From Escherichia phage BAU.Micro_ELP-22: a stretch of 64,000 nt of DNA. This document shows, one piece after another, positions 2 to 21,036 of this stretch. The notes under the pieces were generated by a model. That model searched no databases, was not told the DNA's origin, and worked only from the letters and a program-made list of their open reading frames with translations. How positions within the stretch are numbered: the stretch's first letter is position 1; every line of letters begins with the position of its first letter. The stretch lies in sequence record OR699282.2. The stretch is one strand, 5' to 3'. A program made the position numbers and the translations under genes.

Positions 2-1792
2 GCAATTCTTACTGCTACACGTGAAATTATTGATAACAGCTTAGATGAATTTAAAAAAGCTGGAACCAAAGAACCTGTTTTGAAAGTTGATTTCAATGAA
101 GAAGAACTATCATTTGAAATTAGTGACAATGGACGTGGTATTCCAATTGATTATGTTCCAGAGTATCAGAAAAACTTGTGTACTATGGTAATGACTGAAA
201 CAAAAACAGGCCGTAACTTTGACGATTCAAAACGTGATGAAACGATTGGTCAGAATGGTTTAGGTGGTTCTGTTGCAATGATTGTCAGTTCTAAGGCAGA
301 GTTAGAAATTCATCGCCAAGGTCGTCCGTATAAAACACAAAGTAGTAATGATGGTTATGATGGGTTTTATAAGTTCAATCAGAAGTTTGAGGAAGGAACT
401 ATTATGTTCCCTGAGCTTCATGTACACGAACCTACTATTAGAAAGGTACAAACCGATAAAACTGGAACAACAATTCGTTTTACTTTGAGTAAAGAAGTTT
501 TTCCAAACAGAAAACTACCAACCGAATTACTTTATAGTATTCTTAAAGAAATGGCAGCAGCTAACCCAACTTATAAAATCTTTCTGAACGGGAAACGTAT
601 TGCTATTAAAGGAAACACTGAAAAAGCACTCTTCAATGCATCTAAATTAATGCAGTTGAATGTTAAAGATGATTCATTCAATTTTAACAGTACTTTTTAT
701 ATTGTTCCTAATGCAGTAGCTGGCATGAACACGAATTTCCATATGCATGGGTTGGTTAACAATGCTCCTGCATTTGATGGTGGTACACATCTTGATACAT
801 TCAAGAAATTCTTCTCACTCGGTGTAGGAACTGCACTAGAGAAAGAATCTAAGAAACGTAGGATGAAACCAAATCGTTCTGATATTGAAGAAGGTTTGTT
901 GATTTATAATGTCACAACTATGAAAGCACCTTCATTCAACTCACAGATTAAATCTAAACTAACTAATGAAAACGTAATCCGTCCAATTCAACAAGCTATG
1001 AGTACCGAATGGTTTGATGAATTAGTTAAGAAGAACAAAGAATGGGTTGATGAAATCTTCGAACGTTGTGCTGCCCGTACAAATAAGAAAGATGCAGAAG
1101 AAGATCGTCGCCTAGCAAAGAAACTTCTAAAAGGTAAAGTTGCAAAACTATTGGATAGTACTGGAACAGACCGTTCACAGTGTATTCTATTGATTGCAGA
1201 AGGTGACTCTGCAATTTCCAACATGGCTAGTGCTCGTATACCAAGTATTCATGGTATTCTACCATTGCGTGGGAAAATTATGAACGTCAGTGGTACTGAG
1301 AAAACCAAAGAATTAATGGATTCAATGGCTTTACATGATATAATGGCTAGTATCAACTTAGTTCCAGGTGTCAAAGCAGAACGTTCTGAACTAAACTATG
1401 GTAAGCTTTACATCTGTGCTGATGAAGATGAAGATGGGAAGAACATTGGTGCTCTAGTGTGTAACTTCTTATTTAAATTCTGGCCTGAATTGTTTCAAGA
1501 CCCAGAAAATCCATTTGTGTATGTATTCAAAACACCATTTATCATTCTTGAGAAAGGTAAAGAATCAAAATACTACTATGGTCATAATGTGCATGAATAT
1601 AACCCAGATGATTGGAAAGGCTGGAAAGCAACGCGTGCAAAAGGTTTAGGAACTTTAGAAAAAGCAAACTTCCGTGATGCATTCACTAATAGTGTTGCAG
1701 TAGCGATCACCGATGATGGCCGTCTTGGTGAAACTCTTGATTTGATTTTCAACAAGAAACGTGCAGATGATCGTAAGAACTGGATGGAATAA
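2..1792 (+). CDS. 39: DNA topoisomerase II large subunit, 5' partial (GyrB-like ATPase plus Toprim in one ORF)
   Basis: Frame open to window edge; GHKL N-box-like EIIDNSLDE at N-terminus, GQNGLGGS, Toprim ILLIAEGDSA and acidic ADEDEDG motif. Confidence 0.85.
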   Translation, partial: AILTATREIIDNSLDEFKKAGTKEPVLKVDFNEEELSFEISDNGRGIPIDYVPEYQKNLCTMVMTETKTGRNFDDSKRDETIGQNGLGGSVAMIVSSKAELEIHRQGRPYKTQSSNDGYDGFYKFNQKFEEGTIMFPELHVHEPTIRKVQTDKTGTTIRFTLSKEVFPNRKLPTELLYSILKEMAAANPTYKIFLNGKRIAIKGNTEKALFNASKLMQLNVKDDSFNFNSTFYIVPNAVAGMNTNFHMHGLVNNAPAFDGGTHLDTFKKFFSLGVGTALEKESKKRRMKPNRSDIEEGLLIYNVTTMKAPSFNSQIKSKLTNENVIRPIQQAMSTEWFDELVKKNKEWVDEIFERCAARTNKKDAEEDRRLAKKLLKGKVAKLLDSTGTDRSQCILLIAEGDSAISNMASARIPSIHGILPLRGKIMNVSGTEKTKELMDSMALHDIMASINLVPGVKAERSELNYGKLYICADEDEDGKNIGALVCNFLFKFWPELFQDPENPFVYVFKTPFIILEKGKESKYYYGHNVHEYNPDDWKGWKATRAKGLGTLEKANFRDAFTNSVAVAITDDGRLGETLDLIFNKKRADDRKNWME

Positions 1793-1842
1793 TATAGACT
1801 AATGGGGAACATGGTGTTCCCCTTTTACCAAGAGACAATGGA

Positions 1843-3255
1843 ATGGCTAAAAGTAAAAAAACAGAAAATCATAATATCGATAACCAAACACTAACTCTAC
1901 TAGATTATAACAGTTCTGATTATGTGAATACAACATCACTAGAATATTCGATGTATACACTAGACCGTGCTATTCCTGGAATTGATGGTCTAAAGAGTTC
2001 ACAACGTAAAGCAATCTTCACATTATCTAAAATTAGTGGGGAAATTAAAACAGTATCATGTGCTGGAAAAATGATTAGTGATGGTATCTATCTTCATGGG
2101 GACACGTCAGCATCAGGAACACTTCAAAATCTAGCATCTCCAGTAGCTAACAACTATCCTCTTATTGGAAAACGTGGTGGTTTTGGTACACAAGTAAACA
2201 GTACACCAGCATCTGCTCGTTACACTTATGTTAAAAAGAATAAGAGTACTGAGATGCTTGTTTTGCGTGATGCTGATATTATACCAATGAAAGAGAACTA
2301 TGACGGGACAACATATGAACCTGTTCATTTCTTGCCTATTATTCCATTATCATTGTTTGGTAATGATAGTATGTCAGTTGGTTATAAGAGTACAATTCTA
2401 CCACATAAAATTGAAGATATTATTGATAATTGTATTCGTGCTATTGATAAAAAACCACTAAAAGAAATGACCCCATATTATGTTTCATGTGGTGCAAGTG
2501 ATGTTGTGACTAAGCTTGATGAAAATAAGTATGAATTCTATGGTAAAGCTGAGGTTATTGATGCAAGCACTGTTAAAGTAACAGGCTTACCACCTAATTA
2601 CAGTATTGAGAAATTCATCGAAAAACTAATCAAAATGAGTGATGATGGTGAGATTCGTGATTATGACAATGATAGTACTGATGTAATTGATATTACCATT
2701 AAACTTCCACGTGGAACGTCAGCTAAATGGACAGAGATGGATGTTATTGAGTATTTTGGCATTAACAAAAAAATGACTCAACATTTAACTGTTCTAGGTG
2801 AAAATGGCAAAGTGAAAGTTTACGATACGACAATGGATTTGATTAAAGACTTCGTTGATTTCCGTTTCAAATATTACATCAAGCGTTATGAAAAGAAACT
2901 TGATGATTGTGCTGCTGAAGTTCGTTATAAAATTCTAATTAAAGAATGTTTCGATAATGATATGATTGCTAAGGTAAAAGGATTTGCAAACCGTGCTGAA
3001 ATGGTTGAATTCGTTAAATCGTTAAATACCGAAATTGAAGCAACGGAAGAGAATATTCAAAGCATTGTAAACTTCCCTTCATATCGCTGGACGCAAGATA
3101 ATTATCAATCAGTACTACAAGATATTCAAGATAATCTTGATTTGATGGATAAGTACAATGAACTGTTATCTAATCATGACTTAATTTGGGACATTTATAA
3201 ATCTGAACTAAAAGAACTAAGAAAGATTGACTTTACTCCTAAATCAGACAATTGA
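1843..3255 (+). CDS. 52: DNA topoisomerase II medium subunit (GyrA-like breakage-reunion domain)
   Basis: 470 aa; LDRAIPGIDGLKSSQRKAIF resembles GyrA/ParC N-terminal signature; immediately follows the large subunit. Confidence 0.8.
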   Translation: MAKSKKTENHNIDNQTLTLLDYNSSDYVNTTSLEYSMYTLDRAIPGIDGLKSSQRKAIFTLSKISGEIKTVSCAGKMISDGIYLHGDTSASGTLQNLASPVANNYPLIGKRGGFGTQVNSTPASARYTYVKKNKSTEMLVLRDADIIPMKENYDGTTYEPVHFLPIIPLSLFGNDSMSVGYKSTILPHKIEDIIDNCIRAIDKKPLKEMTPYYVSCGASDVVTKLDENKYEFYGKAEVIDASTVKVTGLPPNYSIEKFIEKLIKMSDDGEIRDYDNDSTDVIDITIKLPRGTSAKWTEMDVIEYFGINKKMTQHLTVLGENGKVKVYDTTMDLIKDFVDFRFKYYIKRYEKKLDDCAAEVRYKILIKECFDNDMIAKVKGFANRAEMVEFVKSLNTEIEATEENIQSIVNFPSYRWTQDNYQSVLQDIQDNLDLMDKYNELLSNHDLIWDIYKSELKELRKIDFTPKSDN

Positions 3256-3265
3256 TATATTTAAT

Positions 3266-3290
3266 GGAAGACCTTATGGGTCTTCCTTGT
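3266..3290 (+). terminator. Candidate hairpin terminator after topoisomerase genes
   Basis: ggaagacc-ttat-gggtcttcc stem-loop followed by T-rich tract. Confidence 0.45.
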
Positions 3291-3296
3291 CCTTTA

Positions 3297-3304
3297 TATA
3301 AATA
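3297..3304 (+). promoter_or_regulatory. T4-type late promoter box TATAAATA
   Basis: Exact TATAAATA about 40 nt upstream of the 3343 start. Confidence 0.5.
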
Positions 3305-3342
3305 ATCTATAGATAATGGCAGCTTGGCTATGGAGAATTATA

Positions 3343-5736
3343 ATGACAACTTTTACCCCACGATGGGATATAAAAGCCGATGCTCGATATATACAAGAAG
3401 GACAAGACATTCTTGTGCGTTTGAGTATCAATAAAGAAAGCACAACGGATGATAGCTATGTATTAAATGAAGATGAATACTTAGAAATGATTCTTAACAT
3501 ACAATGCTTGGATAGTTCAGGTGCTGTATTTGATCCAGAACCACATTATACTTTTTATGTTGGTAATGACGAAAATACTTTTGTTCCTATTTCAGATGGT
3601 ACAACTGGTAATAAATTAGTAAATGGTAAGCATAAGTGTAAAATCAGCAAAAATGAATTTAACTTATCTGCAAGTACTAATAGTGAAGATGTTTATTTTA
3701 TAAAAATTCATTGTAAAAATGATGGAACCTATAATAATACAGAAATTATAAATTTTTATTTACAAGCAGTAAATGTTATGTATTTTGGAAATATTTCACC
3801 AAGTGGTGTTCTAGGATTAACTGATACATCAATAACATATGATAGTCAAGAAGTTTGGGTTACACCCGGAGTTGAGATTGGTGATGACAAAAAGCTTTAT
3901 TGTATTGGTGATGTTGAGTATGGCTCCAACAGTACATTGTTCGTTCAAGGATTTGGAAGAAGACGACCTTTCATTTTGGGTACTGACATGACTACTGATA
4001 TTACACCTCGTGTCTTTTTTCCAGCATATCGTTTGATTGACATGGATATTTCTGAAGTTCCAGATAAACATATTACGAATGATTTCGCAGTATTCAAGCC
4101 AGCACAATCAACATGGCCTATTTCTGGTATAAACAAAGAAGTAAAAGTTAATATTCAAAATAGAAATGGTAATTTAATTGACACTGGAATGGTGTTCAAC
4201 CCAAATGGGCAATTATTGCAAACATTTTTATATGACTCAGATGCTTGTGATGCATATTTTAAAGTTGAGATTGTTGATATATTAAGTACATACACCGAAG
4301 AAAGTGAAAGGTTTGCTATCAATCAACGATATAAAGCATATCAAATGTGGGTTTGTCCTGAAGACATAGATACTATATATTCTATTTCAGAAAAACCACT
4401 ACCCAATCATTTATATCAATTAAAAGATAATGTTGTGTATCCATACGTAATTAGTGGTGAATACGATAATGGAACAATTAAGCCCGTTTATGATAGTAGT
4501 GATTGGATTGATTTAGGATATTATGACTCTACTCTTGGTGATAATATCATTGGTATGCAAAAAATGTTCAGGGTTTTGATAAACGCAGAAGAAGGTAATA
4601 ATATAAACTTTATTACTGATAGTGATTTAGGAACCATACATGTTGGTGAATATTTTGGAGACAGTATATATCCTAAAATTGAAACTGATAGCTCTAATCA
4701 AGTTTCGTATGTTTTAGATGGTGGTGATGACATTAGAAAGTATGGGATAGATTTGACACCAGATGGATATCTTGTAGGAACTGCATATGCCAAAAGTATT
4801 GATTTTAGTGAAAATGATGATATTAAATTATCGTTTTATGTTAAAGCATTTAGTACTGAAGGTGGTGAAGCAAGAAAAATATTTAACCTTAAGATTGTAA
4901 GAGGATTCGGACAGAATTATTTGAGTGCACATGTATTACCTTCGGTTGCATTTGAGAGAGAATGGTTTAAATGTATAAGTACTTCATCATTCACTAATCA
5001 ACTATTTTTCCGACAATCTGACAATAGATATGGTCTTCAGAAAATACCGAAGATGTTATTGAAAGAAAACTTCCTAAGTCAAACGTATCCATATACTAAC
5101 CTTTCTGATATCAAGAAAGTATTGAGAAATAGTATAATTAACCCAAATGGAACTACTATTCCAAATGGAAAATTTAAAATGGTAATGGGTAATTATAAAA
5201 TAATATCAGCACTTGACAATCAAGGTAACTTACAATATGATCTATTATATAGAGAGGTTTTACCTGAAGGTTCTTTAGTATCTGTATCCAAAAATCCACG
5301 TCAATATACTCAAATCGACAACGGTCAGCTTGGTGAATTATTTGGTTTACGACAAAATATTTTTCAGGCTATTGGTGAAGACACAACCAACTTAGTAAAA
5401 GACCCAACCGATTTACAAAATCGTGGTCTATACGTTGATGCGATACCAAGTATCAGTGATGAAATGCTTGATACGGTTCCAAGATTTATGAATCACCCAT
5501 ACATTGAAGATGGTATACAGAAAAAATTCATGCCTATCATTCCAGTTGCATATTGTCAACCAGGCAAAGGTGAAGCATTTTTCAACACTTTACTTCAGAA
5601 CAATGAACATGGTACAATGGTAGGTGTAGAGTTCGAAATCACATCGGTTGAATTCGGATACTTTTCGCATGAATCAGTGAATTATGTTTCAGATACATTT
5701 TTGATTACATTGCAAAACAATAACATAGGAGGTTAA
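3343..5736 (+). CDS. Large hypothetical protein (797 aa), possibly late/structural
   Basis: Long ORF; GGAG RBS before ATG 3343 (track start 3316 lacks RBS); late promoter box upstream; no motif recognised. Confidence 0.6.
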   Translation: MTTFTPRWDIKADARYIQEGQDILVRLSINKESTTDDSYVLNEDEYLEMILNIQCLDSSGAVFDPEPHYTFYVGNDENTFVPISDGTTGNKLVNGKHKCKISKNEFNLSASTNSEDVYFIKIHCKNDGTYNNTEIINFYLQAVNVMYFGNISPSGVLGLTDTSITYDSQEVWVTPGVEIGDDKKLYCIGDVEYGSNSTLFVQGFGRRRPFILGTDMTTDITPRVFFPAYRLIDMDISEVPDKHITNDFAVFKPAQSTWPISGINKEVKVNIQNRNGNLIDTGMVFNPNGQLLQTFLYDSDACDAYFKVEIVDILSTYTEESERFAINQRYKAYQMWVCPEDIDTIYSISEKPLPNHLYQLKDNVVYPYVISGEYDNGTIKPVYDSSDWIDLGYYDSTLGDNIIGMQKMFRVLINAEEGNNINFITDSDLGTIHVGEYFGDSIYPKIETDSSNQVSYVLDGGDDIRKYGIDLTPDGYLVGTAYAKSIDFSENDDIKLSFYVKAFSTEGGEARKIFNLKIVRGFGQNYLSAHVLPSVAFEREWFKCISTSSFTNQLFFRQSDNRYGLQKIPKMLLKENFLSQTYPYTNLSDIKKVLRNSIINPNGTTIPNGKFKMVMGNYKIISALDNQGNLQYDLLYREVLPEGSLVSVSKNPRQYTQIDNGQLGELFGLRQNIFQAIGEDTTNLVKDPTDLQNRGLYVDAIPSISDEMLDTVPRFMNHPYIEDGIQKKFMPIIPVAYCQPGKGEAFFNTLLQNNEHGTMVGVEFEITSVEFGYFSHESVNYVSDTFLITLQNNNIGG

Positions 5737-5737
5737 T

Positions 5738-6049
5738 ATGTTTAATCCGTTTTTTGACCCGTCTGGAATGACGGAAAAAGAACTACAGTTAAAAATTAAT
5801 GAACAGTCAATGCGTTTAACTTCTGCTCGTGCTGCTGGCCTAAGCGACATGATTATTGGTAATATGCAAACTGTCTTAAATCAATGTTATGCTGAACTAG
5901 AACTTCGCCAAGGACAAAAAGAAAAAACTGTTTATGACGAAGAAGACCCATGTATCTTCGATATGGATTCATATCTAACTGACAACGAAGAGGCCCAGAA
6001 GAAGAAAAATGAAAGTACAAGGAAACAGATTTATAAGTCCCAATGGTGA
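5738..6049 (+). CDS. Hypothetical protein
   Basis: 103 aa; GGAGG RBS directly upstream; start 1 nt after preceding stop. Confidence 0.6.
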   Translation: MFNPFFDPSGMTEKELQLKINEQSMRLTSARAAGLSDMIIGNMQTVLNQCYAELELRQGQKEKTVYDEEDPCIFDMDSYLTDNEEAQKKKNESTRKQIYKSQW

Positions 6050-6527
6050 TGTGAAATGTAATCTTAACGCAGTTGTTTATGCAATCAATTGCGGTGCAGA
6101 TATCCAGTACTTACAATTGCAGGAAATTGATGAACCTGAAAGGTTGAAATTCAATGATAACTGTAAAAAATTTGGCTTAGAACAACGTATGCTGGATTAT
6201 ACAATTGAGCATGATAAAAATCATGAACTGTGGCGATATGATCCAGTATACGACAATATAAATCTGCGTGACTTTTTCTTACAAAAATGCACATCCGATG
6301 AAGCACGAAAACGTGTTGAGTATGAACTTGATTTATATGAATATTATAATATGACAAAGCTACTAAGATGTATGATATGGCTTGTTGATTATATGGAAGA
6401 AAATGAGATCTTTTGGGGTCTAGGTCGTGGAAGCTCTGTTGCATCATACTGTTTGTTTTTGATTGGACTACATATGGTAGATTCATTGAAGTACGAACTT
6501 GATGTTAACGAATTTTTGAAATGGTAG
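6009..6527 (+). CDS. Hypothetical protein
   Basis: 172 aa ORF; overlaps previous gene by 41 nt; weak RBS. Confidence 0.45.
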   Translation: MKVQGNRFISPNGDVKCNLNAVVYAINCGADIQYLQLQEIDEPERLKFNDNCKKFGLEQRMLDYTIEHDKNHELWRYDPVYDNINLRDFFLQKCTSDEARKRVEYELDLYEYYNMTKLLRCMIWLVDYMEENEIFWGLGRGSSVASYCLFLIGLHMVDSLKYELDVNEFLKW

Positions 6528-6545
6528 AAAAACATGTGATATAAT
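6516..6545 (+). promoter_or_regulatory. Sigma70-type early promoter
   Basis: TTGAAA, 18 nt spacer, GATATAAT extended -10. Confidence 0.5.
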
Positions 6546-6590
6546 GTTTATTGTAGGCTTATATCACACATACAATAAAAGGATTTTGAT

Positions 6591-6935
6591 ATGTCTAAAC
6601 ATACAACTTATCGTGGTACAACAATTGACATGGATATGCTCAAGTACCAAAATCAACATCAGGTAGCATTAGGTAATGCTAATTTAAACGCACGTGGTGA
6701 TAAAATCGGTTCAGGTGGAACAATTATTAAAACTCGTGAAGAGTTGATTCAAGAAAAAGAACGAGAAATGCAAATTCCTGATTATATCCCTGAACATCAA
6801 CTTCATAGTACTGAACATGGTACGGATGAAGTATGGGATGATGAGAGTTTTGAAGTTAAGCCCGAAGAACAAGAAGCTGAGGTTTCTGAAGAGAAGAAAG
6901 CACCACGTCGAGCTAGAACCAAAGATCAGGAGTAA
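6591..6935 (+). CDS. Hypothetical acidic protein
   Basis: 114 aa; AAGGA RBS. Confidence 0.55.
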   Translation: MSKHTTYRGTTIDMDMLKYQNQHQVALGNANLNARGDKIGSGGTIIKTREELIQEKEREMQIPDYIPEHQLHSTEHGTDEVWDDESFEVKPEEQEAEVSEEKKAPRRARTKDQE

Positions 6936-6943
6936 TATATTAA

Positions 6944-7270
6944 ATGACTAATAAAGTAATGACTGCATGTAAAGGTAAAGTACTGGTAACTGAACTGGAA
7001 CATGGTGAACGCAAAACAGCAGGTGGTATCGTTTTAACAAACGATGACGGTAAAATTAGAGGTATTCGTTCTCGCTGGGCAAAAGTTTATTCTGTAGGCG
7101 AAGACATTACTGATATTAAAGAAGGTCAATGGATTTTAATTGATCATGGTCGATGGTCAAGAACTATTGAAGTTGATGGTATTGAATTAAACTTGGTTGA
7201 TTATCCAGCCGCAGTTAGTTTAGTTTCAGATGAAGATCCACGAACTAAAATGCTAACCTTTGGTCGTTAA
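6944..7270 (+). CDS. GroES-like cochaperonin (functional analogue of T4 gp31 / CocO-like)
   Basis: 108 aa; KTAGGIVLT matches GroES KSAGGIVLT; GGAG RBS. Confidence 0.55.
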   Translation: MTNKVMTACKGKVLVTELEHGERKTAGGIVLTNDDGKIRGIRSRWAKVYSVGEDITDIKEGQWILIDHGRWSRTIEVDGIELNLVDYPAAVSLVSDEDPRTKMLTFGR

Positions 7271-7323
7271 TAAAATATAATTAAAGCTCGGATGAATATC
7301 TGGGCTTTTTATTTGGACAGATT

Positions 7324-7596
7324 TTGATGATAACTGATGATGGAAAATTTAGTTTCAAGGATGTAACATTAGTATCTAAAAACGGAAGATTCATGTTTGA
7401 AGATAGAAAAAATACCAAATATGTATATGAAGTTTCACATGATATGTTTAAAGTTTTATTAGTTGCATCAGCCCAAGCTGAAAGTACTGGGATTAAAAAT
7501 AAGGCAAATTCTTTTAATTTTTTATTAAATCAATTGGAAATGACAGAAGAACTTTTCACGGCTTTATTATATAATTCAGCCGATTGGATTCTATAA
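7324..7596 (+). CDS. Hypothetical protein
   Basis: 90 aa ORF. Confidence 0.4.
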   Translation: MMITDDGKFSFKDVTLVSKNGRFMFEDRKNTKYVYEVSHDMFKVLLVASAQAESTGIKNKANSFNFLLNQLEMTEELFTALLYNSADWIL

Positions 7597-7619
7597 CACG
7601 TACACATAAGGAAATACAA

Positions 7620-8573
7620 ATGACCACACTATGGACTGAAAAATATCGCCCACAATCAATGGAAGATTATGTATCAAAAAACGATGCACTACGCCAGAAA
7701 ATGGAAGAATGGATTAAGACTGGTGACATTCCACATATTGGGTTTTTTGGCCCAGCAGGAACTGGTAAAACATCTGCGATCAAAGTACTAATTAATGGAC
7801 TAGTTCAAAATGGACACCTTGATCCAAGTGATGTGACCACGCTTAACATGTCCGATGAAGGCATTGATGCTGTTCGTGACAAAATCGATGCCGCAGCAAA
7901 GCTATCATGTTTTGGTAGATATCGTATTTTTGTTCTTGAAGAAATGGAGCAGATGAACCACAAAGCACAAGGTAGTTTGAAACGTGTAATGGAAGACTAT
8001 CATGAAAATGCTCGCTTTATTTTAACAAGTAACGAACCACATAAAATTCAAAAACCTATCATTTCTCGTGTTCAAGTTATTACAATCGAAAAGCATGATA
8101 TGGAACAATTCATGACTCGAATTTATAATATTCTTCTAGCAGAAGGTGTTGATTTGAGTAGTGATGATAGTGTTGAACAAGTTCAAAAGTACATCAATGC
8201 TTCCTATCCTGATTTCCGTAAAACACTAAACGTATTGCAAAGTTCAGTTGTTGATGGTAAGCTAGTAAAACTTGAAGATAGTATTGAAAATTCAGCAGGG
8301 TATCGTACTGCAATTGTTGAAGCATTAAAGGCAGGCAACATTCGCCAAATGCGTGAACAAATTGTACAAAATATCCCTGATGATGAGATGGATGCATTTT
8401 TCTCTTACTTGTACAGAAATGCTGAAATGTTCAGTACTGATGAAATCACACTGATGAAGATTAAAGTTAAAATTCGTGATGCAGTTGTTAAGCAAGCAAC
8501 CGTATCAGATCGTGAAATGAATCTTAGTGCTTTACTGTGTGAAATTGACCTAATTTGTTCGGGGAACATGTAA
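7620..8573 (+). CDS. 44: Clamp loader large subunit (RFC-like AAA+ ATPase)
   Basis: WTEKYRP motif, Walker A GPAGTGKTS, Walker B VLEEME; AGGA RBS at internal ATG 7620. Confidence 0.85.
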   Translation: MTTLWTEKYRPQSMEDYVSKNDALRQKMEEWIKTGDIPHIGFFGPAGTGKTSAIKVLINGLVQNGHLDPSDVTTLNMSDEGIDAVRDKIDAAAKLSCFGRYRIFVLEEMEQMNHKAQGSLKRVMEDYHENARFILTSNEPHKIQKPIISRVQVITIEKHDMEQFMTRIYNILLAEGVDLSSDDSVEQVQKYINASYPDFRKTLNVLQSSVVDGKLVKLEDSIENSAGYRTAIVEALKAGNIRQMREQIVQNIPDDEMDAFFSYLYRNAEMFSTDEITLMKIKVKIRDAVVKQATVSDREMNLSALLCEIDLICSGNM

Positions 8574-12665: not shown

Positions 12666-13802
12666 ATGTCCGAGAAAGAAATCAATCCTAAAAAAGCATC
12701 CACCGCAGCTAAATCAGCAAAACGCACTACTAAAACTGCGTCTAAAGGTCATACAATTGATGCAAGTGATATTTTTAACCAAACTACAAAATCACTACCA
12801 GTACTGAAAGATGTTAAGGGAAATACTATGTCTCTAACAGTTCAAAACATCAATACTGTTGGTACAACTGCTGGTGCTGCTGTTGGGCGTTTGGCTGATG
12901 AAATTATGTCTAAAGTTAATGTAACGGATGACAATACCGAGTTTGGTAAATCAATCACCACAATTCTTACGTTGACTCGTGCAGTTGATATTGACAGTCT
13001 TCAAGAAGATAAATCAATTGTTGGTCGTATTAAGAAATTCTTTGTTAATGCTCAACAGAAAGTAGGTGATCAGTACAAAAACAGTAAAGAGCAAATTGAC
13101 GAAATTATGAAAACTCTTCAAACTGGTATTAATCGCCAGCACGGAGAATGTGAATGGCTTGATAAAGCATATAATGAAAACAAAGAATATTTGTTTGAAT
13201 TACGTGATACATTAGTTGGTTTAGAAGAAGTAACTAAAACACAAGATGCATTATTATTAGAAATGCAAGCAGACAAAAATGTAGACTCTTTTGCTATTCA
13301 AGAGCAAAAGATGATTTGTGAAGCACTTTCTAAACAAGAAGATAAGATTCGTCGTCTTATCATGATGTGCGAGCTAAGTGGTCCACGTTTGATGAGTATG
13401 AAAAAAGTAAACTTGAACACTGTTTCTAAGTTTGAAGATTTAAAATCTGTTGTTATTCCAGCATGGAAGTCTCAATTGGCTGAACAGTTAATTTCCGAGC
13501 GTCAACGTAAGGATAATGAACTAGGCAATCTAATTGATAATGAGACAAACCGTCTTTTGGAAACTAACTCTAAAATGGTTGCAGCAAATATGTTGGACGC
13601 AGCAAAGGCAAACAACCGTGGTATTGTGGATATTAAAACCTTGCGTAATGTACATAAAACGATGATTGACAGTATTGAAGCAGTTATTGAAGAAGAGAAA
13701 AAAGGTAAATTGGAACGTGAACGTGCTAAACAGGAAATTGCACAACTTTCCTATGAACTGGAAGACACTCTTCGTGAAATTGCCGAAAAAGCTAACAAGT
13801 AA
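12666..13802 (+). CDS. Hypothetical coiled-coil-rich protein (possibly TelA-like, unverified)
   Basis: 378 aa; lysine-rich N-terminus; family assignment is weak recall only. Confidence 0.55.
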   Translation: MSEKEINPKKASTAAKSAKRTTKTASKGHTIDASDIFNQTTKSLPVLKDVKGNTMSLTVQNINTVGTTAGAAVGRLADEIMSKVNVTDDNTEFGKSITTILTLTRAVDIDSLQEDKSIVGRIKKFFVNAQQKVGDQYKNSKEQIDEIMKTLQTGINRQHGECEWLDKAYNENKEYLFELRDTLVGLEEVTKTQDALLLEMQADKNVDSFAIQEQKMICEALSKQEDKIRRLIMMCELSGPRLMSMKKVNLNTVSKFEDLKSVVIPAWKSQLAEQLISERQRKDNELGNLIDNETNRLLETNSKMVAANMLDAAKANNRGIVDIKTLRNVHKTMIDSIEAVIEEEKKGKLERERAKQEIAQLSYELEDTLREIAEKANK

Positions 13803-13805
13803 TAG

Positions 13806-13834
13806 TTGACATATGAGTGCGTTTTTAATATAAT
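13806..13834 (+). promoter_or_regulatory. Sigma70-type early promoter
   Basis: TTGACA, 17 nt spacer, TATAAT. Confidence 0.6.
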
Positions 13835-13858
13835 CTTATTGAAAACGCACTCTTTTTA
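13815..13858 (+). terminator. Terminator hairpin whose loop contains the -10 of the next promoter
   Basis: gagtgcgtttt / aaaacgcactc 11-bp stem followed by TTTTT. Confidence 0.55.
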
Positions 13859-13881: not shown

Positions 13882-14571
13882 ATGAAACGTCGTCATATTA
13901 GTGTTGATATTGAAGCTCTTGGAACACCTGAACTTTCCGGTTATGATATTATTATCCCAAATTACGCAGCAGTAGTAGTTCCAAGTAAACCTGAAAATGA
14001 CATTCGTCAGTTCTTATATATTAAATTACCATACCAGGATCAAGTTGCAACTGGTTTAAAATCAGACGCAGGTGCAATGGATTTTTGGATGAATACATGT
14101 CAGAAAGAATACCCTAATGCATATGCTGAAGTTGCCAGTACTATGAAACTCAAAGCACCTGAACTGTATGGACCTAATGGTCAATCACGACGTTTTTTTG
14201 CATACAGTAGTATTGTTGATTTCTGGAAAGAATTACGTTACAATGATTATGGTGAAGAAGTTCCTCATTCAGTCTGGGGCAACGGATGTAACTTCGATTG
14301 TAGTATTTTACAAGCAAACCATTTAAAACTAATGAACGCTGGTGAGTTGTGGAAGTATGATGCACCTGAAAATGCACGCACATTGAAACGTTTATTGAAT
14401 GAAGAAGCTCGTATTGAAATGGATGAAATCGTTTCGGTACAGTTGGATAAATTTATCAGATATGCAAATACGTGTGGGATTAATGGGTTGGAGTTACATC
14501 ACCCACTGTTTGATGCAGCACGTGAAGCAATCCAGATTTCATTCTGTCTAAACAAGCTTAAAATGGATTAA
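13882..14571 (+). CDS. dexA: DexA-like 3'-5' exonuclease (DEDDh family)
   Basis: 229 aa; Exo I motif SVDIEALG, Exo III-like HHPLFDAAREA; size and layout like T4 DexA. Confidence 0.65.
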   Translation: MKRRHISVDIEALGTPELSGYDIIIPNYAAVVVPSKPENDIRQFLYIKLPYQDQVATGLKSDAGAMDFWMNTCQKEYPNAYAEVASTMKLKAPELYGPNGQSRRFFAYSSIVDFWKELRYNDYGEEVPHSVWGNGCNFDCSILQANHLKLMNAGELWKYDAPENARTLKRLLNEEARIEMDEIVSVQLDKFIRYANTCGINGLELHHPLFDAAREAIQISFCLNKLKMD

Positions 14572-16229: not shown

Positions 16230-16255
16230 GGGAGTACTTTGTACTCCCCTTTTCT
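16230..16255 (+). terminator. Rho-independent terminator
   Basis: gggagtac-ttt-gtactccc hairpin followed by CTTTTCT. Confidence 0.7.
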
Positions 16256-17423: not shown

Positions 17424-17777
17424 ATGCTAATTTATTTAAGTGTTATTGTAATTTCATTACTGGTATCATTCGCTGTTCTTAAAATTGTTGCTATTTGTAG
17501 AAGTAAGATTGATAGTTCTGAAACTAGTTCAGTACTTGACTTGATTATGGACCATCCTAAAATCTGTGGTATTATTGTATTATTCGTTGTACTGATTAAT
17601 ACATATATTGTCAGGGAACATTTATATAATATGTATGATTGTAGTGTTAGATCTATATCACAAGGTGTTGAAACAGACTATAGTTGGTACTATGAGAAAT
17701 GTCGATTTAAAAACCAGCATGGTATTTGGGTTGATTTTGATAAACTACGTGGAACACCTTCAGGAGAAGAAGAATAA
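17424..17777 (+). CDS. Small membrane protein
   Basis: 117 aa; two hydrophobic helices. Confidence 0.5.
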   Translation: MLIYLSVIVISLLVSFAVLKIVAICRSKIDSSETSSVLDLIMDHPKICGIIVLFVVLINTYIVREHLYNMYDCSVRSISQGVETDYSWYYEKCRFKNQHGIWVDFDKLRGTPSGEEE

Positions 17778-17779
17778 TT

Positions 17780-18271
17780 ATGTTTGAATTCCCAGAAGAG
17801 TCATTTAACTTCATTGACCCTACTGATGATGGATACCGACATATTAACATTTATAGTAAAGCCAGAACGAAGTTAGGTAGAGATCTATCTAACTTTTCTT
17901 CGCATAGCTTCACACTTGAACCATATGGTTGGTTCCCTTCAGTTGAAACATTTTACTTTTGGTTTTTAACTGGGCAAAAACATGATGACCTTAGAAAAGT
18001 ATCTGGTGCAGCAGCAAAAGCAGCCGCTAACAAATATATGCATGATCGAATTGAAATGACGGATGATTGTATTTCTATTATTCAAGATGCTATTTGTGCT
18101 AAGATAATTCAAAATCCAGAGTTAGCCGAAAGATTAAGAAAAAGCAAGTTGCCTTTTTACCATTACTATGTATATGGTGGTAAAGTTGTAGATGTATCCG
18201 ACGAACATGATTGGTTTGTTAAAACATTCGAATATATAAGAACGGTGTTAAAGGAAAACTATAATGGGTAA
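17780..18271 (+). CDS. YbiA/NADAR-like protein
   Basis: 163 aa; INIYS, LSNFS, FPSVETFYF and AKIIQNPELAERL segments parallel E. coli YbiA blocks as recalled. Confidence 0.5.
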   Translation: MFEFPEESFNFIDPTDDGYRHINIYSKARTKLGRDLSNFSSHSFTLEPYGWFPSVETFYFWFLTGQKHDDLRKVSGAAAKAAANKYMHDRIEMTDDCISIIQDAICAKIIQNPELAERLRKSKLPFYHYYVYGGKVVDVSDEHDWFVKTFEYIRTVLKENYNG

Positions 18272-18542
18272 ATGTTGGGTATGCTTCAAGGTGTTTGATG
18301 AAGAATATGAAATAATATTAGATGTATTGCCACAGCAGTACATGGTGTGTAATGAAAAATACAAATTGGACACCTACCCGACCCCCAAGTACATGGGAAT
18401 ATGTCCTTTGTGTGATGCAAATGGCGTGTCCAATAGTGAGATTTCATTCACTAACCAAGCCACAACTAACTGTGTATCTGGGTATATAAGAGAGAATCGA
18501 GAATATTTTATTAGGAGATTATATGAACGACAAAATCTTTGA
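18264..18542 (+). CDS. Zinc-ribbon protein
   Basis: 92 aa; CWVC and CPLC pairs. Confidence 0.45.
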   Translation: MGKCWVCFKVFDEEYEIILDVLPQQYMVCNEKYKLDTYPTPKYMGICPLCDANGVSNSEISFTNQATTNCVSGYIRENREYFIRRLYERQNL

Positions 18543-21010: not shown

Positions 21011-21036
21011 TGCCCCGATCTTCGGGGCATTTTTCT
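21011..21036 (+). terminator. Rho-independent terminator
   Basis: tgccccg-atctt-cggggca hairpin followed by TTTTT. Confidence 0.7.

Follow-up and report, generated by a model that had tools for sequence, protein, structure and literature searches.

Bacteriophage T4 AdfN (gp30.3, the anti-DarT factor NADAR) and two independently acquired phage NADARs strip guanine-linked ADP-ribose (ADPr) from DNA, restoring phage growth against DarTG1 (PMC11825919). The examples of AdfN-Bas32 and AdfN-Bas60 indicate that NADARs of diverse lineages can counter DarTG1 with no help from other phage proteins (PMC11825919), and all NADAR subtypes tested so far hydrolyze guanine-linked ADPr (G-ADPr) in vitro (PMC11125620, PMC12945103, PMC11543638). 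In NADARs, a Glu (E43 in PnNADAR, E88 in E. coli C7) positions the distal ribose (PMC11543638, PMC11825919) and a Lys at position Glu+7 coordinates the ADPr diphosphate; mutation of this Lys significantly impairs G-ADPr hydrolysis in the E. coli C7 NADAR (PMC11543638, PMC12945103). The catalytic residues of T4 AdfN are E36 and K43 (PMC11825919). R79, W89, R93 and W133 make further phosphate contacts in NADARs, and NADARs differ in one last-strand residue, with Glu in the YbiA type, Asp in the DarT1-linked type and His in the phage gp30.3 type (PMC11543638, PMC11125620, PMC12945103). Here we describe a gene of Escherichia phage BAU.Micro_ELP-22 that encodes a protein of this superfamily; it lies in a 64,000-nucleotide stretch of sequence record OR699282.2, which as a whole is called the window below.

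17780–18271, + strand: coding sequence for a stand-alone NADAR-fold protein of 163 amino acids (aa), a member of the PHROG 652 lineage and ortholog of phAPEC6 gp139c.

The protein is best described as belonging to a third, uncharacterized phage NADAR lineage, with an active site that has the Glu and the His and lacks the Lys. The reading that we favor, to which we give roughly even weight, is that it is a stand-alone ADP-ribosyl N-glycohydrolase that would serve counter-defense, with DarT1-type guanine-ADPr as its first-ranked predicted target.

Family assignment

Searches with the single sequence gave little. Pfam, NCBIfam and the PDB returned no match (phmmer). The Pfam NADAR model (PF08719) did not match the protein even at an E value of 10, the Phage_30_3 model (PF08010) did not match it either, and the gathering score of neither model was reached. 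When the same models were compared with 27 relatives, weak sub-threshold matches to PF08719 were found in 5 (best E 0.024) and weak matches to PF08010 in 6 (best E 0.0042; cutoff 36 bits). BLASTP aligned the protein to YbiA with 23% identity over 111 residues (E 0.011 for a single comparison) and produced no alignment with T4 gp30.3/AdfN, to which kinship was detected by profile-profile comparison only.

The 27-sequence alignment, used as a profile against all PDB sequences, retrieved only NADAR entries (8BAU at E 1.1e-4 and YbiA 2B3W at E 4.8e-4). With hhalign, the match to a 32-sequence YbiA-family alignment was 94.2% (E 1.1e-7, 134 columns) and the match to a 35-sequence T4 gp30.3/AdfN-family alignment was 96.9% (E 1.3e-10, 140 columns); as a yardstick, hhalign of the validated AdfN family against YbiA gives 97.6%. 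Judged by these alignments, similarity to YbiA is not significant for the single sequence and becomes significant once relatives are added. All matches in PHROGs were to families of 'unknown function', and the protein itself is PHROG 652. The PADLOC library had no match for it, a result that is uninformative, as T4 AdfN, the positive control, was likewise unmatched. In the same library, E. coli K-12 YbiA matches the candidate defense-system model PDC-M42C (E 9e-16).

An AlphaFold2 model built from the 27-sequence alignment has a mean predicted local distance difference test score (pLDDT) of 90.5 and a predicted template modeling score (pTM) of 0.83, with modeled strands at residues 21-23 and 129-132 and a NADAR domain that covers about residues 10-160 of 163. 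Foldseek comparison of the model with the PDB gave three matches at probability 1.00 and all others at 0.04 or below. In a viral structure library, the model matches its own lineage first and then many giant-virus and phage 'NADAR domain' proteins. The NADAR fold assignment is thus secure, and the protein is a member of the NADAR superfamily by fold and profile that lies outside PF08719 and PF08010 at their thresholds. Its nearest characterized relative appears from the sequence comparisons to be the phage gp30.3/AdfN type and not YbiA: hhalign scores the AdfN family better (E 1.3e-10 against 1.1e-7), and the two phage lineages have in common a G-x-x-A-K-x-x-G-[RK] motif as well as the C-terminal-strand His. 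The first-pass annotation had called the product YbiA/NADAR-like, and this label is correct, since the profile, hhalign and model searches establish both the fold and the remote homology. The blocks on which it had relied (INIYS, LSNFS, FPSVETFYF and a fourth) are present and pair with YbiA as proposed in the HMMER and hhalign alignments.

Active site and comparison with described NADARs

We located the NADAR motifs in the gene from the alignments and the model, and counted the conservation of each column among 151 relatives of the lineage.

17843–17857, + strand: INIYS, codons I22-S26, in the first beta-strand (model strand 21-23), paired in the alignments with YbiA I17-S21 'INFYS'.
17885–17896, + strand: LSNF, codons L36-F39, the NADAR signature, aligned with YbiA F29-F32 'FSNF' and T4 AdfN L17-F20.
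17945–17947, + strand: E56, codon GAA, aligned with the distal-ribose Glu (PnNADAR E43, C7 E88, YbiA E48, T4 AdfN E36).
17966–17968, + strand: L63, codon TTA, at the position of the diphosphate Lys (PnNADAR K50, C7 K95, YbiA K55, T4 K43) by the Glu+7 register.
18161–18169, + strand: H128-Y129-Y130 'HYY', which opens the C-terminal beta-hairpin; H128 corresponds to T4 AdfN H123, the 'histidine of phage NADARs' (hhalign and model).

E56 is conserved in all 151 relatives. In the INIYS strand, N23 is found in 151/151, Y25 in 142/151 and S26 in 147/151, and in the LSNF signature S37, N38 and F39 are found in 134, 148 and 142 of the 151. The HYY motif is nearly as constant (H128 149/151, Y129 146/151, Y130 146/151). 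H128 pairs with T4 H123 at an hhalign column confidence of 8/9; its placement relative to YbiA E125 is uncertain by some 3 residues, and the match of the C-terminal strand to YbiA E125/D130/W133 has low confidence. E142-x-x-W145 was weighed as a counterpart of NADAR D130-x-x-W133 and discarded, since position 142 varies among the 151 relatives and hhalign instead pairs HYY with A131-Y132-W133 at low confidence. The lineage also has a distinctive N-terminal motif, D17-G-x-x-H21-x-N23-x-Y25-S26-K, and the G-x-x-A-K-x-x-G-[RK] motif is common to the lineage and the AdfN-family consensus.

The first-pass annotation had named absence of a NADAR-family hit, or catalytic residues that are not conserved, as outcomes that would count against it. 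We found NADAR hits and an invariant Glu; however, the Lys at Glu+7 is Leu. The assignment to the family stands. The counter-defense role that the annotation proposed, reversal of DarT-type guanine modification, now has a direct phage precedent in T4 AdfN, AdfN-Bas32 and AdfN-Bas60 but carries a real caveat in the missing Lys. The register from Glu to Glu+7 is ungapped in all four independent alignments. As the usual diphosphate Lys is missing, ADPr binding must differ somewhat in this lineage. Basic residues are conserved at other positions of the lineage: K27 (K or R in 128/151), R34 (R or K in 131/151), K80 (149/151) and K135 (K or R in 118/151), and position 72, an Arg here, is R or K in 149/151. 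We hypothesize that some of the conserved lineage-specific residues, with K27, R34, K80 and K135 as candidates, rebuild the phosphate site.

Like this protein, T4 AdfN (PF08010, Phage_30_3) is a stand-alone protein of about 150-160 aa from large lytic myoviruses, without a DarT partner and without an N-terminal extension. The two share LSNF, the Glu (E56 and E36), the G-x-x-A-K-x-x-G-[RK] motif and the C-terminal-strand His (H128 and H123). However, AdfN retains K43 where Leu63 stands here, so that the E36 and K43 pair is not reproduced, and this lineage has its own D-G-x-x-H-x-N-x-Y-S-K and HYY motifs, an extra beta-hairpin (129-138) and W145. The activity of AdfN is established by experiment, whereas this lineage is known here from sequence and a model. 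The hallmarks of DarG1, the NADAR antitoxin associated with DarT1 (BC4488 family; E. coli C7, G. lovleyi 8BAT), are all absent from this protein: DarG1 has a last-strand Asp and the essential K95, is extended at its N terminus and is encoded beside darT1.

E. coli YbiA (PDB 2B3W, PF08719), an N-glycosidase of riboflavin intermediates, has 17% identity to this protein. The YbiA-family invariants K55, R79, W89, E125, D130 and W133 are replaced or unalignable here; for K55 and the E-x4-D-x2-W-G motif (E125, D130, W133) we found no counterparts, position 127 being variable and 142 not conserved. YbiA is a cellular gene in a LexA-controlled operon, unlike this phage gene. Like this protein, AdfN-Bas32 and AdfN-Bas60 stand alone and come from lytic coliphages that do not belong to the T-even group (PMC11825919), but they were found by DELTA-BLAST on the conserved NADAR domain, and hence are canonical enough to match it, whereas this protein is unmatched by the Pfam model. 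When hidden Markov models of the three NADAR families were run against the entire rV5 genome and the first 45 kb of T5, no NADAR was found, so we make no link to Bas32, Bas60 or the phage NADAR that inhibits Retron-Eco1.

The PHROG 652 lineage

The lineage is found by tblastn in 505 phage records, and the gene at 60% identity or more in 45. By comparison, AdfN-like sequences are found in 1,511 and YbiA-like sequences in 641 records of the phage collection. A YbiA-like copy is present in fewer than 9 Escherichia phage records, so that, to judge from organism counts, most of the roughly 34 121Q-type records evidently have none. When 1.84 billion cluster representatives (50%-identity clusters) were searched exhaustively with a profile, at least 2,089 clusters matched at E ≤ 1e-3, of which 646 were at E ≤ 1e-30. 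The phage names and genome sizes, together with one Ackermannviridae-type note in the phAPEC6 annotation, suggest that the phages which carry the lineage include the 121Q group, Kuttervirus/Vi1-like phages of Salmonella, Klebsiella and Escherichia, jumbo phages of Erwinia, Serratia and Dickeya, and Vibrio phages.

Many relatives carry a second domain. In a set of 84 multidomain members, the domains that Pfam recognizes as partners are DUF4326 (25), YAcAr-type SLOG (18), DprA-like SLOG (10), Macro (6) and DUF488-N3a (6), with a canonical NADAR, a metallophosphatase and an Rv2179c-like exoribonuclease once each. The multidomain proteins reach 1,415 aa, and some are labeled 'DprA-like' in phage records owing to their SLOG half. 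The same NAD/ADPr-processing partners were described for phage NADARs by Iyer, Burroughs, Anantharaman and Aravind (PMC9503650, PMC7824862). Since these fusion architectures match the published ones, specialists with sensitive profiles have very probably counted the lineage as NADAR already; we found no explicit statement in the literature that assigns this lineage or the 121Q-type phage group to NADAR.

We looked for a conserved operon partner in the neighborhoods of 7 relatives, which are small-gene arrays, and found none that is fixed. Single relatives among the 7 adjoin an ADP-ribosyltransferase (ART) gene, lie near a 2H phosphoesterase gene and a metallophosphatase gene, or lie near a DUF4326 gene. 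On a 117-kb phage-like metagenomic scaffold, a lineage member (6001-6435, + strand) is convergent with a gene (6500-7678, – strand) for a 392-aa ADPrib_exo_Tox/ART protein 65 nucleotides away, an arrangement that recalls T4 gene 30.3 near alt (about 2.8 kb apart).

Possible activity, substrate and role

We read the protein as a probable ADP-ribosyl N-glycohydrolase because of its fold, its invariant Glu and His, and the ADPr-centered fusion partners of its lineage. Guanine-ADPr reversal ranks first among the candidate activities because there is a precedent in DarTG1 counter-defense and because every NADAR subtype tested hydrolyzes G-ADPr. In favor of this reading we also count the single relatives beside or near ART, 2H phosphoesterase or DUF4326 genes and, as a sign of selection, the spread of the gene and its lineage among phages. 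The protein would be produced in the infected cell as one product of a cluster of small accessory genes, and with a histidine-type active site as in T4 gp30.3/AdfN would act as an ADP-ribosyl N-glycohydrolase that protects the phage from host defenses working through ADP-ribose. ADP-ribose put on phage-DNA guanine by DarT1-type toxins would be removed, and replication would go on. In the portion of the virion mass-spectrometry table that was examined, the phAPEC6 ortholog gp139c is not listed, so nothing in that portion points to packaging or injection with the DNA.

Several observations weigh against guanine-ADPr reversal. Neither the Pfam NADAR nor the Phage_30_3 model recognizes the protein, and we found no experimental study of any lineage member in the literature. 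Just two catalytic residues are said to be conserved throughout the superfamily, and the Lys at Glu+7 ('largely conserved'), here Leu63, is one of them; in C7 it was reported to be essential for efficient G-ADPr hydrolysis and antitoxin function (PMC11543638). In this lineage it is Lys in 14/151 relatives and absent from 137/151 (about 90%), and neither Lys nor Arg occurs there in any of the 27 aligned sequences (0/27). The equivalent of Arg79 (the 'GR' motif) is Asn84 in this phage clade (R or K in 111/151 relatives), and that of Trp89 is Ile91 (W in 38/151). Full activity of T4 AdfN requires a further phage factor, and uninfected cells are not rescued by AdfN (PMC11825919); activity may therefore be context-dependent. 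From comparative genomics, Iyer et al. expect the targets of phage NADARs to be mostly soluble ADPr derivatives (PMC9503650). In the window, no known family was found among the ten nearest genes around the NADAR gene, and none of the 69 open reading frames (ORFs) of at least 110 aa encodes a DarT, ART, Macro, Nudix or SLOG protein.

It is possible, if on the unlikely side, that the 'HYY' lineage is a functionally distinct branch that does not reverse DarT1 guanine ADP-ribosylation and would hydrolyze or sequester another ADPr conjugate, such as a soluble immune signal, a toxin or RNA-linked ADPr. If this were true, the branch would represent a third widespread phage strategy against ADP-ribosylation, present in some 500 of the large phages sequenced, among them Kuttervirus-like, Erwinia/Serratia jumbo and 121Q-type phages. 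Three specific rival readings stay in play because of the putatively rebuilt phosphate site and the comparative-genomic argument for diffusible ADPr derivatives (PMC9503650).

The first, which we consider rather unlikely, is that the protein is an active NADAR hydrolase of a soluble ADPr-derived molecule (a cyclic ADPr signal of the TIR/Thoeris type, ADPr-1''-phosphate or another N-glycosidic ADPr derivative) that would blunt immunity based on signaling or on toxic metabolites and would not repair modified DNA. The recurrent fusions to SLOG (YAcAr and DprA-like), Macro, DUF4326 and DUF488 domains agree with it, and Iyer et al. see such architecture as a division of labor in degrading diffusible ADPr derivatives (PMC9503650, PMC7824862); however, the fusions would also fit a stepwise clean-up that follows ADPr removal from nucleic acid. 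The changed diphosphate site (no Lys at Glu+7, with N84 and I91 in the clade) fits another ligand geometry, and the larger window ORFs, 69 in number, include no DarT-like partner. Against this, every NADAR assayed so far works on ADPr that is linked to a base (PMC11125620, PMC12945103), and we did not find hydrolysis of a soluble signal by a NADAR in the literature.

A different nucleic-acid target strikes us as quite improbable. The substrate would then be RNA (mRNA adenine-N6-ADPr made by CmdT-type defenses, or RNA G-ADPr) or cytidine-ADPr. NADARs also remove RNA G-ADPr and some remove cytidine-ADPr (C-ADPr; PMC12945103, PMC11833690), but the His-type phage NADARs are listed as G-ADPr and not C-ADPr hydrolases (PMC12945103). 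Johannesman et al. expect some phage NADARs to act against RNA-targeting ARTs (PMC11825919). A 2H phosphoesterase and a metallophosphatase, a setting typical of RNA repair, stand about 1 kb from one relative, and one is fused to an Rv2179c-like 3'-5' exoribonuclease, a gene for which stands 3.2 kb upstream in the window (13882-14571). Such RNA-repair contexts are sporadic, however, each being seen once among the 7 sampled neighborhoods.

More doubtful still is a non-catalytic ADP-ribose binder, in which the NADAR fold would be a sponge or a stoichiometric inhibitor of an ADPr-modified host defense component. The loss of the Glu+7 Lys and, in this clade, of the Arg79 and Trp89 equivalents is in line with such a role, but E56, H128, Y129 and Y130 are 97-100% conserved in at least 151 diverse relatives, which argues for a maintained catalytic center, and fusion to other enzymes (Macro, DUF4326) suggests a role in a pathway. 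The cited precedent is a phage NADAR that inhibits Retron-Eco1 and is described as acting independently of enzymatic activity (PMC11825919, ref 37, Carabias et al. 2024); we draw no line of kinship from it to the PHROG 652 lineage. Finally, a YbiA-like housekeeping N-glycosidase of riboflavin-pathway intermediates, carried as a phage auxiliary metabolic gene, is hardly credible, as the YbiA invariants K55, R79, W89, E125, D130 and W133 are unmatched, the lineage is phage-borne and tied to ADPr domains and not to rib genes, and the canonical YbiA-like phage NADARs are a separate set (641 records).

Guanine-ADPr reversal gives a specific, testable function to a gene that is annotated "hypothetical protein" in every 121Q/PBECO4/phAPEC6-type record examined. 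These jumbo phages are promoted as therapy against pathogenic E. coli, and in the literature on them we found no mention of NADAR. The kind of system is already known and recently validated, a NADAR in a jumbo phage is unsurprising to a specialist, and the missing Lys is a variant feature; on the other side, this third phage NADAR lineage is large, is missed by standard domain models and mis-annotated, is apparently unsampled in the experimental papers on DarTG1 counter-defense, and has an altered active site that poses a clear question. In a lineage without a Lys deemed essential, the behavior of one member would indicate either that a rebuilt phosphate site is tolerated by NADAR catalysis or that the substrate is different, and either outcome would refine the prediction of phage host range against ADP-ribosylating defenses.

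Genomic surroundings

The window is part of a 121Q/PBECO4/phAPEC6-type jumbo coliphage (Asteriusvirus), with 99.5% identity over 2.5 kb to phAPEC6, SP27 and JP4. The NADAR gene lies within a long same-strand run of small genes. Its start is the first ATG past the stop of the upstream gene (17424-17777; 117 aa, with hydrophobic segments), which ends 2 nucleotides short of this ATG, and a possible ribosome-binding stretch falls inside the 3' end of that gene.

17762–17774, + strand: purine-rich Shine-Dalgarno-like stretch before the ATG, AGGAG (17762-17766) followed by AAGAAGAA, as read from the sequence.
18264–18542, + strand: next gene, a Cys-rich ORF of 92 aa with Cys pairs such as C-W-V-C and C-P-L-C (phrog_35738, unknown function).

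Translational coupling of the Cys-rich ORF is suggested by its start, 8 nucleotides ahead of the NADAR stop codon. The ORF was not found beside a 50%-identical NADAR homolog, so it is probably not an obligate partner. We looked in the window for a paralog or a second NADAR type and found none.

GC-rich, terminator-like hairpins at 16230-16248 and 21011-21029 (+ strand) flank some 4.8 kb of small + strand ORFs, the NADAR gene among them, and this block could be a single transcription unit. A promoter scan of the window did not rise above shuffled sequence (75 found versus 69.6 expected), and we make no claim on the timing of expression.

The window as a whole is a replication and host-takeover region, with no further recognizable NAD/ADPr gene among the ORFs of at least 110 aa. 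Its other ORFs include topoisomerase II subunits (region 80-5736, with a GyrB-like ORF at 80-1792), a DNA polymerase III alpha fragment, a clamp-loader subunit, a C5 cytosine DNA methylase, a sigma-70-family factor, an NT5C nucleotidase and a HAD hydrolase. A sigma-70 consensus with a perfect 12/12 match (TTGACA-17-TATAAT, 13806-13834, + strand) overlaps a 16-bp terminator-like hairpin (13815-13852) in the gap that separates a TelA-like gene (12666-13802) from the Rv2179c-like exonuclease gene (13882-14571).
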